A stretch of 64,000 bases of DNA from Patescibacteria group bacterium (GTDB taxonomy: Bacteria; Patescibacteriota; Patescibacteriia; 2-12-FULL-60-25): the NCBI GenBank assembly GCA_029004215.1, contig JAQULH010000001.1:11947-75946 (forward strand), read 5' to 3'. Made by a program: the position numbers and the translations under genes. The notes beneath the pieces are model-generated. The model did not search any database. It saw only the letters and a list, made by a program, of their open reading frames with translations, and had not been told where the DNA came from. The stretch's first letter is position 1. Every line of letters starts with the position of its first letter. This document shows positions 3,375 to 54,066 of the stretch, piece by piece.

Positions 3375-3436
3375 TAATTTTGTAAAAATAAAATAACAAA
3401 ATGTCAGATGTTAAACTCCGTGAGACGAAAATAATT

Positions 3437-3465
3437 GTAGAGACGTTACATTACAACGTTCCTAC
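3437..3465. repeat. degenerate copy of the GTAGAGACG hairpin terminator family
   Basis: GTAGAGACGTTACATTACAACGTTCCTAC flanked by AAAATAATT / AATTATTTT, directly after the comEC stop. Confidence 0.6.
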
Positions 3466-4054
3466 AATTATTTTGTTCGCTGTCATTAACATCATAAATT
3501 GACCATGGACGCTAAACGCCGCACGCTGTAAGTGAGGCTTCACAGCTTCGCACCTCGAAAGCAACAGACTCGGAACGCAAGATTGATCGCACAGCGCGCC
3601 AGTATCCGGCAGGACCAATGAGCTAAACGGGCATTGGCCTCTGCCGCTAGTCGGTTCGGCAACTGATTGGCAGACGATGCATTTATAAAGTGCGTTTTAC
3701 ATACATCAAAGATGGGTCCTGGAGGGGATTTTTCATCAAAGATGCCATTTCGTCATGTAGCTAATGACTACAAGGCACAAATGGAGGGGCGTATCAGTCG
3801 AGCTAAAAAAGCTAAAGCCGATGTCCAAAATCGGCCTGAGAAAAAATCGTAGTTACAATTGGCAGCGCGATATTCATAAACACGCTGTTGACCATGTTCC
3901 AGCCTTTGATTGGCGACAGGAGCGGTCATGTGATTACGGTTCATTGGGTCAGGACTTTTGCCAAAAGTCCGGAGGCGGGCCGTTCCGAGTTTGTTGCCCA
4001 AGACTGCTTTGGTCTCCTCTACGACGCGTATTGGAGGGAACCGGAGGCAGTCTC

Positions 4055-22017: not shown

Positions 22018-22058
22018 AAAAAAGTAGAGACGTTGCATTGCACCGTCTCTACTTTTTT
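22018..22058. terminator. GTAGAGACG-family hairpin terminator (bidirectional form)
   Basis: A6-GTAGAGACGTTGCATTGCACCGTCTCTAC-T6, directly after rpoC. Confidence 0.75.
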
Positions 22059-27200: not shown

Positions 27201-27210
27201 AACCCCAAAT

Positions 27211-27251
27211 AAAAAAGTAGAGACGTTGCATTGCAACGTCTCTACTTTTTT
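27211..27251. terminator. GTAGAGACG-family hairpin terminator (bidirectional)
   Basis: A6-GTAGAGACGTTGCATTGCAACGTCTCTAC-T6, between converging gyrA and clpP. Confidence 0.8.
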
Positions 27252-27253
27252 AT

Positions 27254-27865
27254 TTATTCCAGCACCTTATCTATCAATCCGTATGCCTTAGCCGTCTTTG
27301 GATCCATGAAGTTATCGCGTTCCGTGTCAGCTTCAACTTGTTTAAAAGGCTTACCGGTGTGTTTAGCCAGGATTCGGTTAAGTTGGTCTTTCATCTTAAG
27401 CAGGCGTTCAGCGCGGATTTTAATGTCAGTGGCTTGGCCTTCGACTCCACCCAGCAGTTGGTGGATCATGATCTCGGAATTGGGCAAGGCAAAACGCTTG
27501 CCCTTGGCCCCACCGGCCAAAAGCACGGCGCCCATGGAAGCTGAGAGGCCGATGCAAATCGTCGAAACATCGCAAGCAATGCTTTGCATGGTGTCGTAAA
27601 TGGCCAAACCGGCGTTGACCGAACCGCCCGGGGAGTTGATGTAAAGCTTGATATCCTTGGTTTTGTCTTGGCTTTCCAAAAACAGCAACTGGGCGATCGT
27701 GATATTGGCCACATCATCGTCAATGGCTGAACCAAGCATGATGATCCGGTCTTTCAGGAGGCGGGAATAGATGTCATAAGCCCGCTCGCCGCCCTGTGAT
27801 TTTTCAATAACTGTCGGTACTAAGTAGGAGCCGGTCATTTTTGAGGTAATGGTATAGGGATTCAT
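27254..27865 (-). CDS. clpP: ATP-dependent Clp protease proteolytic subunit
   Basis: Catalytic Ser context GLSASMGA, plus His and Asp. ATG 27865 is preferred over TTG 27874. TATATT (27879-27874) lies 8 nt upstream. Confidence 0.95.
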
Positions 27866-51527: not shown

Positions 51528-52541
51528 ATGGACCATGTGCGAAGCGCGATTATAAGGACACTAGCCTTTCAGGCTGCTTGGGGTTATGCGCCAACGCGTT
51601 TGCAGTTAGCCATGATGTTGGATGTGGGTTGTGTTGAGACACAAGATATTACGCCTCAACAAATCAACACAGCAGTTGTCATGGATGAACTGGATCGCCT
51701 GATTGCAGAAAATATTGTTTGCGAACAACAAGCTCATGTAGCTTTGGCGCATTTTGCTTACCAAATAGAAAAAGGACGGGCAAAAGAGTTTTATTTCCCG
51801 CGTAAATTGCGACGTGCGCGGCAAGTAGCCTCATACTTAAGCCGTTTGCCTTGGGTGCGCGCCGTTTGTTTATGCAATACAACTGCTTTAGGTCAAGCTC
51901 GCGATGAAGGTGATTTGGATTTTTTTGTAATTGCCAAAGCCGGTTCTATTTGGCGCACCAGGTTTTTTGCAACCCTGCCTTTCAAACTATTGGGCGCCCG
52001 ACCGACTTCTGTCATTGCGAGGAGCGGCAGCGACGAAGCAATCTCCGGAGATTGCCACGCTACGTCTAACTTCGCTCGCAATGACAAGCCACGAGCAACA
52101 GATCCAGTTTGTTTATCATTCTTTGTGACAGATGATTCATTAGACCTTTCGCCTCACATGTTGCAGGGCGATGATCCGTATTTCCGTTATTGGTTCTTGT
52201 CGCTTTTACCCCTGACTGACGATGGAGTGCTGAAGAGTCTTTGGGACCAGAACATTAAAATCAGGCAGAGGCACCCTTTGGCAAAGCCATGGATGCCCTT
52301 GGATGGCGATGATTTGCTCAAGCCCACCAAGCCTGCCCAGCAGCCGGTTCGTTCATGGCTAGAGGATACCTTGAAAAAGGCGCAGCAAAATAAGTTTCCT
52401 GCGTCGATTAAGTTAATTGCCAACCAAGACACGAGGGTTGTTGTCAACGACCAGTGCCTAAAGTTCCATGTGGATGATAAACGTGAGAAGTATTGGTCGG
52501 ATTATTGCGATATCTGTAAACAATATGGGATTGAGCCGTAA
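51528..52541 (+). CDS. hypothetical protein (possible nucleotidyltransferase-fold core) carrying an in-frame 75-bp repeat insertion
   Basis: 337-aa ORF. GQARDEGDLDFFVIA resembles a nucleotidyltransferase acidic motif. See the repeat at 52011-52085. Confidence 0.5.
   Translation: MDHVRSAIIRTLAFQAAWGYAPTRLQLAMMLDVGCVETQDITPQQINTAVVMDELDRLIAENIVCEQQAHVALAHFAYQIEKGRAKEFYFPRKLRRARQVASYLSRLPWVRAVCLCNTTALGQARDEGDLDFFVIAKAGSIWRTRFFATLPFKLLGARPTSVIARSGSDEAISGDCHATSNFARNDKPRATDPVCLSFFVTDDSLDLSPHMLQGDDPYFRYWFLSLLPLTDDGVLKSLWDQNIKIRQRHPLAKPWMPLDGDDLLKPTKPAQQPVRSWLEDTLKKAQQNKFPASIKLIANQDTRVVVNDQCLKFHVDDKREKYWSDYCDICKQYGIEP
52011..52085. repeat. 75-bp palindromic repeat unit inserted in frame in a CDS
   Basis: Terminal inverted repeat GTCATTGCGAG / CTCGCAATGAC and a central 18-bp palindrome GCAATCTCCGGAGATTGC (52038-52055). 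Exactly 25 codons (VIARSGSDEAISGDCHATSNFARND). Confidence 0.7.
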
Positions 52542-54066
52542 AGCCTACGAAATAGTTTGGCGCCTGGCCATTCTTACGTTGCCTTGGCAGACGCGTTGGT
52601 TTGTTGATGCCCAACTTGTTGGCTGGCCTTGGGAGCAGGGGAGGATCTCGATTTATATTGCTTGGCTGCCTTTGGTAGCAACTATCATCCTCGGGATTTT
52701 TCAGCCCAAACGTGCTCTGCCTTTTTCTTTTCGTCGTAATTTGTTTTGGCTAATTGCGGCTTTGGGAGCCTGCACTATAATCGCCGCACCATCGCCTGCC
52801 ACGGCAGCCATCCAATGGTGGATACAAGTGATATTACTTGCAGCATTTTTTGTTACGTTATTTAGAACCAAAGTCGAACCGGTCAAGGTTGCTCTTTGGT
52901 TTGTCTTATCACTCGTGCCGCATGCTCTGCTTGCCATCTGGCAGTTCGCAACGCAAACAGTCATTGGCAGTTCGTGGCTTGGAATGTCGCCGCAAAACCC
53001 GGCTGACTTGGGCGTCTCAGTTGTCCAGACTTCTGTTGGACGCTTCTTACGCGCTTATGGCGGATTTCCTCATCCCAACATCCTTGGTGGTTGGATGGCA
53101 ACAGGATTGCTCACTGCACTTTGGTTCAACATTCCCCCTCTTAAATTAAGAGGGGGCAAGGGGGTGATATGGTTAATCGAGGGTCTCTTCACTCTCGCGC
53201 TTTTTTACTCTTTTTCCCGCAGCGCCTGGCTCGCCGCTGCCGTCGGACTTGCCCTGTTCGTCATTCCGAGCGTAGGCGCCGCGCCCGCCATCGCTACGCT
53301 CAGGCGTTGCGGGCGGGAGGAATCTGCGAAGCTTATGAACTTGGGTGAATCTGCGAAGCTAACAAACGTCGTGAATCATCCCAACGGAGCCAAACGACGG
53401 TGGCTTTCTTTCGCTATCCCCATCATCCTCTTTGCAACGTTAACTATCGTCCATCGCGACCTCGTATTCACGCGCCTGCAGACGACGTCCCGCCTCGAGC
53501 AGAAATCGATCGTGACCAGGCTGCAGACGCTTAAGGACGGCATAGACGTCTTCCAATCCCGTCTGCTTTTCGGCACTGGCCCGAACTCTGAATTGCCAGT
53601 TTTGGCCTCCTTAAAAAAACAATGGATAGAAGAAGACTCAATCCGGATAGCTGCAATCGGTCAATTCCCCGGTCACCCTAACTCTTGGAACGCTGACGAG
53701 TACGTGCGCAGCCGCATGGCGGCCATCGGACCGCTCGAACCGCCACACATAGTTTGGTTGCTGATTCTCGTCAACTTCGGAATCGCAGGTTCTTTATTTA
53801 TTTTTGGCTTTGGACTTTATTTGCTACGGAGTATTTTGAATAAATGGAGCTCGCTTGATCCCAACGCAAAGATATTCATTCCAACTCTTGCTATTTGCTA
53901 TTTGATCCTTGCCACGTTGGACCATTATCCATGGTCACTTTGGTCCGGTCAGGTGTTGTCGGTAGTTGTTGTTTTTGTCATCCTGAGCGCAGTCGAAGGA
54001 TCTGGACCGAAACTGGATGAGAAACATAGCCCTCGATTATTGACAGATGGGTCGGAAAGTGCTTAA
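52525..54066 (+). CDS. O-antigen ligase/Wzy_C family membrane protein
   Basis: Polytopic membrane ORF with an FSRSAWLAA motif. ATG 52525 is preferred. Two repeat-derived segments lie inside it (53260-53360 and 53977-54003). Confidence 0.7.
   Translation: MGLSRKAYEIVWRLAILTLPWQTRWFVDAQLVGWPWEQGRISIYIAWLPLVATIILGIFQPKRALPFSFRRNLFWLIAALGACTIIAAPSPATAAIQWWIQVILLAAFFVTLFRTKVEPVKVALWFVLSLVPHALLAIWQFATQTVIGSSWLGMSPQNPADLGVSVVQTSVGRFLRAYGGFPHPNILGGWMATGLLTALWFNIPPLKLRGGKGVIWLIEGLFTLALFYSFSRSAWLAAAVGLALFVIPSVGAAPAIATLRRCGREESAKLMNLGESAKLTNVVNHPNGAKRRWLSFAIPIILFATLTIVHRDLVFTRLQTTSRLEQKSIVTRLQTLKDGIDVFQSRLLFGTGPNSELPVLASLKKQWIEEDSIRIAAIGQFPGHPNSWNADEYVRSRMAAIGPLEPPHIVWLLILVNFGIAGSLFIFGFGLYLLRSILNKWSSLDPNAKIFIPTLAICYLILATLDHYPWSLWSGQVLSVVVVFVILSAVEGSGPKLDEKHSPRLLTDGSESA
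53260..53360. repeat. GTCATTCCGAG-type repeat unit plus a 14-nt direct repeat, in frame inside the ligase gene
   Basis: GTCATTCCGAGCGTAG...CTACGCTC...GGAGGAATC, with an internal pairing CGCCCGCC/GGCGGG. GAATCTGCGAAGCT occurs at 53320-53333 and 53347-53360, which is a 27-nt period. Confidence 0.6.
53977..54003. repeat. GTCATCCTGAGCG-type repeat unit forming the C-terminal coding end of the ligase ORF
   Basis: GTCATCCTGAGCGCAGTCGAAGGATCT (translated VILSAVEGS). It shares the head motif with 52011 and 53260. Confidence 0.55.

Follow-up and report, generated by a model that had tools for sequence, protein, structure and literature searches.

The 64,000-nt stretch of Patescibacteria DNA analysed here (the window) carries, at positions 52011–52085, a 75-bp palindromic element lying in frame within the gene for a conserved 337-residue protein. 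We consider it probable, at roughly 0.8, that this element is a gene-less, two-arm form of an Ssn/SRM-type cassette encoding a GIY-YIG nuclease, which has recently spread in the genome and whose in-frame presence is tolerated by a loop on the surface of the host protein. The full cassette would be about 390–430 bp long, with a single gene for a GIY-YIG protein of about 95–100 residues set between inverted arms that have TGTCATTGCGAG... termini. This parentage had been overlooked in a preliminary description of the DNA. The genome is a 65-contig metagenome-assembled genome (MAG) of 1.195 Mb with a GC content of 49% and an estimated completeness of 95.5%.

A 75-bp inverted repeat within a conserved gene

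The features on which the analysis is built are the following.

51528–52541, + strand: host gene, an open reading frame (ORF) for a conserved 337-residue Patescibacteria protein; no Pfam family matched
52011–52085, + strand: palindromic element, 75 bp, or 77 bp counting the flanking T and A that complete the TGTC tags at 52010 and 52086
52011–52021, + strand: left terminal inverted repeat GTCATTGCGAG, 11 bp, the head found upstream of the GIY-YIG gene in full-length cassettes
52038–52055, + strand: central perfect 18-bp palindrome, GCAATCTCC followed by GGAGATTGC, the inner ends of both arms, which flank the nuclease ORF in full-length cassettes
52075–52085, + strand: right terminal inverted repeat CTCGCAATGAC, 11 bp, the exact inverted repeat of the left end

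The element reads GTCATTGCGAG-GAGCGGCAGCGACGAA-GCAATCTCCGGAGATTGC-CACGCTACGTCTAACTTCG-CTCGCAATGAC, and its arm reads TGTCATTGCGAGGAG...GCAATCTCC. The exact terminal 11-mer occurs only twice in the window, at the two ends of the element. The element starts 483 nt (3 × 161, or 161 codons) past the ATG and therefore on a codon boundary, and its 25 stop-free codons encode VIARSGSDEAISGDCHATSNFARND, residues 162–186 of the protein, in the sole long ORF that spans the site. Reading the segment bore out the preliminary description on the 75-bp length, the 11-bp inverted termini and the 18-bp central palindrome, as well as on the codon-boundary start, the length in multiples of three, the lack of a stop codon and the 25 residues added to the 337-residue protein. 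Its limits for the element held for the 75 bp itself, but the conserved unit is one base longer on each side (T...A) in 15 of 16 half-sites. The tryptic peptides predicted across the insert junctions include ...PTSVIAR and SGSDEAISGDCHATSNFAR.

As DNA, the 77-nt element folds with −21.3 kcal/mol (z −4.6), a value equalled by none of 200 shuffled sequences. Only the dimer folds strongly, the half-units being formed by a 5-bp stem (ATTGC...GCAAT) around an interior of 13–19 nt.

Copies in the genome and in sister genomes

A blastn search of the genome returned eight full-length copies, each exactly 75 bp long and 92–100% identical to 52011–52085, besides a few partial ones; the count that had been proposed as a check thus shows that the element has relatives elsewhere in the genome. 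A T precedes GTCAT in seven of the eight copies and an A follows ATGAC in all eight, which yields the TGTC tags at 15 of 16 half-sites and a conserved unit TGTCAT...ATGACA with pyrimidine-rich flanks. Three copies are genic, in the gene for the 337-residue protein, in the single leucyl-tRNA synthetase (LeuRS) gene and in the gene for a PMT_2-like membrane protein, and all three have the same orientation and phase 0. The other five lie in short intergenic spacers without fixed orientation: 9 nt and 6 nt past stop codons, where genes converge, in the gap separating a −10 box from a start codon, and beside a nuclease gene. A genome-wide palindrome scan with a 6-nt exact arm agreed with the 75-bp length of the full copies. 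Among 31 related genomes (this one included), the family is patchy, being present in 13 and as full-length copies in few, and shorter "half" matches reach tens of copies in two.

The joined flanks of the intergenic copies were then used as queries against the relatives. The copy on contig C5 is absent from the sister genome G005, where one alignment of 89% identity crosses the junction. The copy at C2:55858–55932 and its counterpart at G005:C22:9442–9514 (L228) occupy the same site between identical flanks with the element inverted, which fits either removal of the element followed by its reinsertion or an inversion between its palindromic ends. Copies therefore differ in both presence and orientation between sister genomes. 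The 75-bp copies have probably spread through the genome recently.

As a separate observation, the copy at C25:2634–2708 lies between a TATAAT box and the next start codon, where G005:C55:48735–49343 (L227) instead holds an extra gene for a 186-residue product, accompanied by a duplicated promoter-like stretch.

A GIY-YIG nuclease gene between the same arms

One copy marks the candidate parent. At C11:17313–17609 (minus strand), an ORF of 99 residues encodes a single GIY-YIG domain (Pfam E 1.4e-11, residues 5–79) and no other domain; a 75-bp copy directly follows its stop codon, and the arm GTCATTGCGAGGAGTTTGACGACGTGGCAATCTC (GTCATTGCGAGGAG...GGCAATCTC) lies 6 nt before its ATG. Searches of the protein against PDB and NCBIfam gave no match. 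Upstream of the gene, C11:17610–17980 holds tandem 49-nt half-elements (CTTTTGTCATTGCGAGGAGGGAGTCAGACGACTGACGCGGCAATCTCCC) interrupted by a 100-N assembly gap, with a second start of the same gene after it; the cassette has probably undergone a tandem duplication here that is collapsed in the sequence.

Homologs of the GIY-YIG protein occur in 24 of the 31 genomes, with up to eight per genome (8 per 1.4 Mb). In the relatives the layout is constant: an arm GTCAT..., a few bases, the ATG, the ORF, its stop, a few bases and the complementary arm ...ATGAC. We scored a locus as bracketed when a GTCAT-headed 12-mer within 200 nt upstream had its reverse complement within 200 nt downstream, allowing up to 2 mismatches, and used windows shifted by 700–1100 nt as controls. 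By this test 19 of 29 loci in relatives were bracketed, compared with 0 of 111 shifted controls; for homologs of ≥46% identity the figure was 18 of 23. Exact GTCATTGCGAG arms were found in eight of the nine closest homologs (≥54% identity), and remoter homologs have other GTCAT-headed families. Since the inner arm ends (GGCAATCTC ... GAGATTGCC) are the two halves of the central palindrome of the 75-bp element, the element corresponds to the cassette minus its ORF. At the level of sequence, the arms of the element are those of the nuclease cassette.

A repeat of this shape could also be a classical repetitive extragenic palindrome (REP) or REPIN moved by a RAYT, that is, a Y1 HUH transposase, or else a miniature inverted-repeat transposable element (MITE) derived from a DDE insertion sequence. 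In the REPIN–RAYT system an inverted REP pair forms a multi-copy, non-autonomous hairpin, and the Y1 HUH transposase gene is flanked by the same repeats (PMC3116915). The element resembles it in consisting of two inverted REP-like units that form a hairpin, in being multi-copy and in having a repeat-flanked gene for the cognate enzyme, and its terminal inverted repeats are as in MITEs. It differs in its tag, which is TGTC rather than GTAG, and in entering genes, REPINs being essentially extragenic. We found no Y1_Tnp (PF01797) match in the genome, which is 95.5% complete, and across the 31 genomes the element and Y1_Tnp coincided in 4 cases versus about 5.5 expected by chance, which is no association; RAYT mobilisation was rejected. 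The insertion-sequence MITE was likewise set aside: the terminal inverted repeats are there, but no target-site duplication accompanies them and the only longer element with the same ends in the genome is the GIY-YIG cassette. We regard this whole class of explanation as very improbable.

Insertion into loops of the host protein and of other proteins

The host protein has 385 homologs, nearly all in Patescibacteria. In an alignment of 31 of them, the insert occupies a hypervariable loop bounded by two invariant blocks, LPFKLLGARP and DPVCLSFF, and distant homologs of about 306–312 residues have the minimal loop ARPGERSVDPV. At the syntenic loci compared (NusA, YidC, a PRC-barrel protein, the host gene, Wzy_C and GroES/EL), the flanks are collinear. 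One syntenic ortholog (L005) has a plain 27-nt loop without a palindrome, and the two closest (L001 and L003) carry unrelated palindromes in the same loop, TAACTCACCC...GGGTGAGTTA and CCTCCCCTT...AAGGGGAGG. The ortholog alignment, which had been suggested as a check, thus identifies the 25 residues as an insertion that some orthologs lack and others replace with unrelated palindromes. The view of the element as a dispersed MITE/REP-like repeat rather than native coding sequence was upheld by the eight near-identical copies, the hypervariability of the loop and the palindrome-free syntenic ortholog.

Structure prediction, proposed as a further check, agreed. The AlphaFold2 model of the host protein, built from the 31-sequence alignment, has a mean per-residue confidence (pLDDT) of 85 and a predicted template-modelling score (pTM) of 0.84, and the pLDDT falls below 50 only at residues 163–186, the insert, which is modelled as a disordered surface loop. 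A Foldseek search of the model against PDB gave only weak, non-significant matches to winged-helix regulators and nucleotidyltransferases (best E 0.045). Elsewhere in the same protein, a variable N-terminal loop, VETQDITPQQ (VETQNFASNS in relatives), may derive from a related GTAGAGACG palindrome, as an in-frame copy that has since decayed.

The LeuRS gene is single-copy in the genome. At the insert site its product has 30 residues, compared with 5 in Thermus thermophilus LeuRS (1h3n/2v0c), a surplus of exactly 25, and the site is the turn directly before VFTTRPDT, where the editing domain begins. In the relative whose LeuRS is most similar, the element is missing from this site; among the other relatives, one has a 75-bp variant, one a related GTCATTTCGAC element, and others quite different repeat-like inserts. 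In the membrane protein, which matches PMT_2 only weakly in Pfam, the insert lies between two hydrophobic segments; G008 has no insert in the corresponding loop, and G005 and G012 have two other repeat families there.

The LeuRS loop before VFTTRPDT is a hot spot in its own right, with at least eight distinct repeat-like inserts in 19 related genomes (L006–L024), examples being VIPT..EGSL, ITNYELR, KFQVASSKSQ and TRTGTRTNADQ. The present genome and G002 share a remnant, GTCATTTCG..CTTCT, after which a full element follows at an identical nucleotide position in each, though the two elements are different.

An intact ORF with the segment in frame, in a 65-contig MAG, could in principle reflect a native variable loop or an assembly artefact. 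However, seven further loci, intergenic ones included, have near-identical DNA; the segment is absent from orthologs, the flanks are collinear with orthologous loci, and another genome, assembled independently, has a variant at the LeuRS site. Native sequence or artefact therefore has next to no probability.

The same termini and the nuclease in other phyla

Elements with the same 11-bp termini were found in at least 120 stretches from many phyla, with translations ending in ...ARND or ...SLAMT, so that the "FARND" motif noted in the preliminary description as recurring in hypothetical proteins is real. The hosts include Bradyrhizobium, Sphingomonads, Pedobacter, Mucilaginibacter and Flavobacterium, and also Chloroflexi, Planctomycetes, Coxiellaceae, Rickettsiales and Berkelbacteria. 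Homologs of the nuclease, with 44–56% identity, were present in 13 of 14 genomes from other phyla bearing the terminus (L232–L261), among them Bradyrhizobium, Tisiphia, Pedobacter, Mucilaginibacter and Coxiellaceae, and 15 of 29 homologs in other phyla were bracketed, compared with 0 of 109 controls. A Rickettsiales symbiont has a nuclease homolog with CGTCATTGCGAGGAG...GAAGCAATCC arms, and a Sphingobium homolog (49% identity, E 3.7e-22) is flanked by a canonical Neisseria-type NTS. Proteobacterial relatives of the repeat family carry the CGTC tag. The combination of 44–56% identity with the same arms suggests that the cassette spreads horizontally across phyla.

In-frame elements with these termini also occur in two genes of Gammaproteobacteria MAGs (the L078/L083 pair): a 78-bp element encoding VIARPRSGAAISKNSEIASEGAPRND in the GMP synthase gene (GuaA), and an 87-bp element encoding VIASKAKQSHS...APRND in UvrA. 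Genic copies in high-GC genomes were first called by a stop-to-stop ORF criterion, which mostly yields spurious ORFs; only GuaA and UvrA were confirmed by Pfam.

Frame preference and the RNA level

The preliminary description had asked whether the element is selected for frame neutrality or acts at the RNA level within the mRNA. The lengths of 124 same-terminus elements from other genomes divide 50/37/37 by length modulo 3 (chi-square p = 0.26), so that the family shows no bias towards multiples of three and selection of the element itself for frame neutrality found no support. For the genic copies in this genome, the proposed tabulation of phase and length gave phase 0 and 75 bp in three of three; the length bias did not extend to the family.

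Each strand of the element has two open frames, the third ending in the TGA within CAATGAC. The frame and orientation reading VIA...RND were found in five of five genic copies (the three here, GuaA and UvrA; p ~0.03 against two equally likely open frames), and among the four open frames it is the most hydrophilic, with a grand average of hydropathy of −0.56 versus −0.07, +0.23 and +0.47. Other frames do occur: P0006 and the Wzy_C protein of L005 have SLRAK... readings. These patterns are most simply read as selection acting after insertion, with survival limited to copies that land in a permissive place and are read as a soluble loop free of stops. Genic copies would then persist only where the frame is kept (75 bp being 25 codons), the copy is read without a stop and the loop tolerates extra residues, and the insert is most likely just translated, as a disordered, hydrophilic loop of 25 residues with no function of its own.

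Alternatively, the hairpin might act in the mRNA, regulating translation or decay, and the intergenic copies might terminate transcripts or stabilise mRNA, roles that have been proposed for classical REPs. The element region does form a strong RNA hairpin (−34.1 kcal/mol, z −3.2 against shuffles), and several intergenic copies lie 6–9 nt past stop codons or between convergent genes, the usual position of REPs (PMC3733652). In addition, the central stem is altered on both sides among relatives with the palindrome kept, CTCCGGAG, as in the element at 52011–52085, versus CTAC(N)GTAG; such changes are equally expected of a DNA palindrome recognised as single-stranded DNA. An Rfam scan of 51900–52200 with E up to 10 returned only a chance SAM-VI match outside the element, the three host genes are unrelated, the intergenic orientation is free with one copy inverted between sister genomes, and one copy lies in a 5′ leader, not at a 3′ end. 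The SsnA nuclease of N. meningitidis, the characterised Ssn enzyme, neither binds nor cuts RNA (PMC11893778). In this weak test we thus found no evidence for the suggested action inside the mRNA, and consider a role at the RNA level improbable.

Relation to known repeat systems

In-frame palindromic elements within genes of Rickettsia (Rickettsia palindromic elements, RPEs) were reportedly described by Ogata and colleagues in 2000 and 2002 and by Claverie and Ogata in 2003. A second precedent is provided by the CGTC-tagged REPs, whose tag is often TGTC, whose stems begin with AT and which are mostly inverted dimers (Di Nocera et al. 2013, PMC3733652). According to the same study, RPEs of R. 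conorii end in CGTC, intragenic REP dimers encode 20–30 residues in presumed loops of known proteins (uvrA being one of the genes), often in repair genes, and the CGTC repeats have no dedicated transposase (PMC3733652). The element shares with these dimers and RPEs the TGTC tags, the AT...AT ends and the form of an inverted dimer (75 bp), and it encodes 25 residues in frame in LeuRS and two other genes, with GuaA and UvrA as further cases elsewhere. An in-frame hairpin repeat, which had been called unusual, is less so in the light of Rickettsia RPEs and of CGTC-tagged REP dimers encoding 20–30 residues (PMC3733652). The likeness to RPEs is one of tag, dimer form and in-frame product. Unlike the CGTC REP unit, with a stem of 8–9 bp, a loop of 4–5 nt and a tail of 3 nt (PMC3733652), the halves of the element are weak hairpins (5-bp stem, 13–19-nt interior) and so depart from that unit structure; moreover, Patescibacteria are not among the described host phyla, and here the arms bracket a GIY-YIG gene. 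What is new is therefore the host phylum and the looser unit structure, the in-frame CGTC/TGTC REP dimers and the Rickettsia RPEs being known.

The gene between the arms points to a third system. Ssn proteins are single-domain GIY-YIG proteins of about 94 residues (cd10448), whose genes lie between hairpin repeats with an (H)GTCAT head, known as NTS/SRM (Chenal et al. 2025, Nat Commun 16:2388; PMC11893778). Their cleavage of single-stranded DNA falls upstream of the repeat, they are inactive on duplex DNA and RNA, and in Neisseria they influence transformation; the repeat–gene–repeat layout resembles an insertion sequence, and repeat and enzyme form many co-varying pairs (PMC11893778). The protein found here, with 99 residues and a single GIY-YIG domain, resembles them in size and domain content, and its gene is flanked on both sides by a dispersed GTCAT-headed repeat at its own locus, in relatives and in other phyla. 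Among the differences, NTS lie within genes in 2% of cases in N. meningitidis versus three of the eight copies here, and the Ssn/SRM paper (PMC11893778) contains no Patescibacteria, in-frame copies or gene-less two-arm derivatives.

Genome-wide, the SRM motif has seven matches, which is the level of shuffled sequence; two of them look like true NTS. These two, at C6:536 and C13:13038 (TGTCATCCTCGCGAATGCGGGGATCCAG and TGTCATTCCCGCGAAGGCGGGAATCCAG), are near-identical to the Neisseria NTS consensus.

Does the nuclease move the repeats?

SsnA recognises its repeat as single-stranded DNA and cleaves immediately upstream of the tag; by analogy, the nuclease may be the mobiliser of the element. In the strongest form of this proposal, the cassette would be an autonomous minimal transposon, with the nuclease as the sole enzyme moving both the cassette and its 75-bp derivatives, and landings in permissive loops would be a source of loop sequence; we hold this stronger version only tentatively and lean against it.

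In another account, the association of the arms with the GIY-YIG gene is genuine, yet mobilisation is not the work of the nuclease, and the copies spread by recombination or gene conversion, by another transposase or by uptake of foreign DNA. The nuclease would then be a homing-type passenger targeting the palindrome or a domesticated host factor, for example one limiting recombination of incoming single-stranded DNA, and the in-frame copy would be a relic. SsnA does affect transformation, and its domestication has been proposed (Chenal et al., PMC11893778); the present genome (G000) has one GIY-YIG locus, with a partial second copy at the assembly gap, against eight short copies; and the C2 copy is inverted in place. 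In addition, the same loops hold different repeat families in sister genomes, which gene conversion at an existing palindrome could bring about. Against a passenger or domesticated factor, many relatives have several copies of the nuclease gene (as many as 8 in 1.4 Mb), as is typical of selfish elements, the terminus family and the nuclease subfamily co-vary, and identities of 44–56% in a protein of only ~95 residues among Patescibacteria, Bacteroidota and Proteobacteria with the same arms point to horizontal spread of the whole cassette. On balance we judge a non-mobilising nuclease unlikely.

Several results weigh against our preferred reading, the gene-less derivative of an Ssn/SRM-type cassette. 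The half-units of the element fold no better than shuffled sequences (z +1.0, +0.2 and −0.3), compared with z −5.5 for an NTS control, and on both strands the element fails the SRM motif HGTCWYN(0-2)YYVSBRHN(0-5)WNVSBRGN(0-2)RNCYNB, which the NTS control matches. A tblastn search of 897 kb surrounding 120 same-terminus elements of other phyla found no GIY-YIG gene at distances of up to 8 kb; most same-terminus copies are orphans, not near a nuclease gene. No direct repeat that could be a target-site duplication stands beside any of the eight copies, and the empty site of the C5 copy is unclean, its spacer differing by about 85 nt and not by exactly 75. Finally, Chenal et al. favour a domesticated, host-serving Ssn in Neisseria over transposition (PMC11893778).

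Other repeat-derived segments in the window

The neighbouring gene contains a further segment of repeat origin.

53259–53360, + strand: second repeat-derived in-frame segment, within the neighbouring Wzy_C (O-antigen-ligase-like) gene, 52468–54066

The head of this segment, CGTCATTCCGAGCGTAGGCG, and its inner end, GAGGAATCTGCGAAGCTTAT, match the arm beside a GIY-YIG gene in the sister genome G005 (L174), with 95–100% identity over 20 nt. The loop is wholly different among three syntenic orthologs, one of which reads SLRAKFDGAWRS, a reverse-frame reading of the GTCATTGCGAG family, and the Wzy_C protein of the window is 47–93 residues longer than its orthologs.

Three further places in the window, 27207–27255, 22018–22058 and 3428–3474, hold copies of a perfect or near-perfect palindrome of 20–24 bp, AAAAAAGTAGAGACGTTGCA / TGCAACGTCTCTACTTTTTT, flanked by an A-run and a T-run; they look like a repeated family of two-way terminators. 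A literature search with the sequence strings of the element and its peptide motifs brought up nothing relevant.

Implications

For annotation, the 25 residues in the 337-residue protein and the similar segments in LeuRS, in the membrane glycosyltransferase-like protein and in Wzy_C are to be treated as repeat-derived passengers, not as family motifs, and many "hypothetical proteins" with ...ARND or ...SLAMT at their ends result from translation of this GTCATTGCGAG-terminus repeat family. The locus joins three literatures that have not been explicitly linked: the in-frame Rickettsia-type palindromes, the CGTC-tagged REPs "without a transposase" and the Ssn nucleases. Comparison of sister genomes indicates that copies come, go and flip, and the essential, single-copy LeuRS tolerates an insert where its editing domain begins. 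If the nuclease does mobilise the repeats, the enzyme missing for the RPEs and the CGTC REPs would be supplied, and few known mobile elements that are self-contained would be as small as the cassette. The recurrent arrival of different families in loops of essential proteins, such as LeuRS and membrane enzymes, would then steadily bring new loop sequence into the reduced proteomes of Patescibacteria and of symbionts such as Rickettsia.

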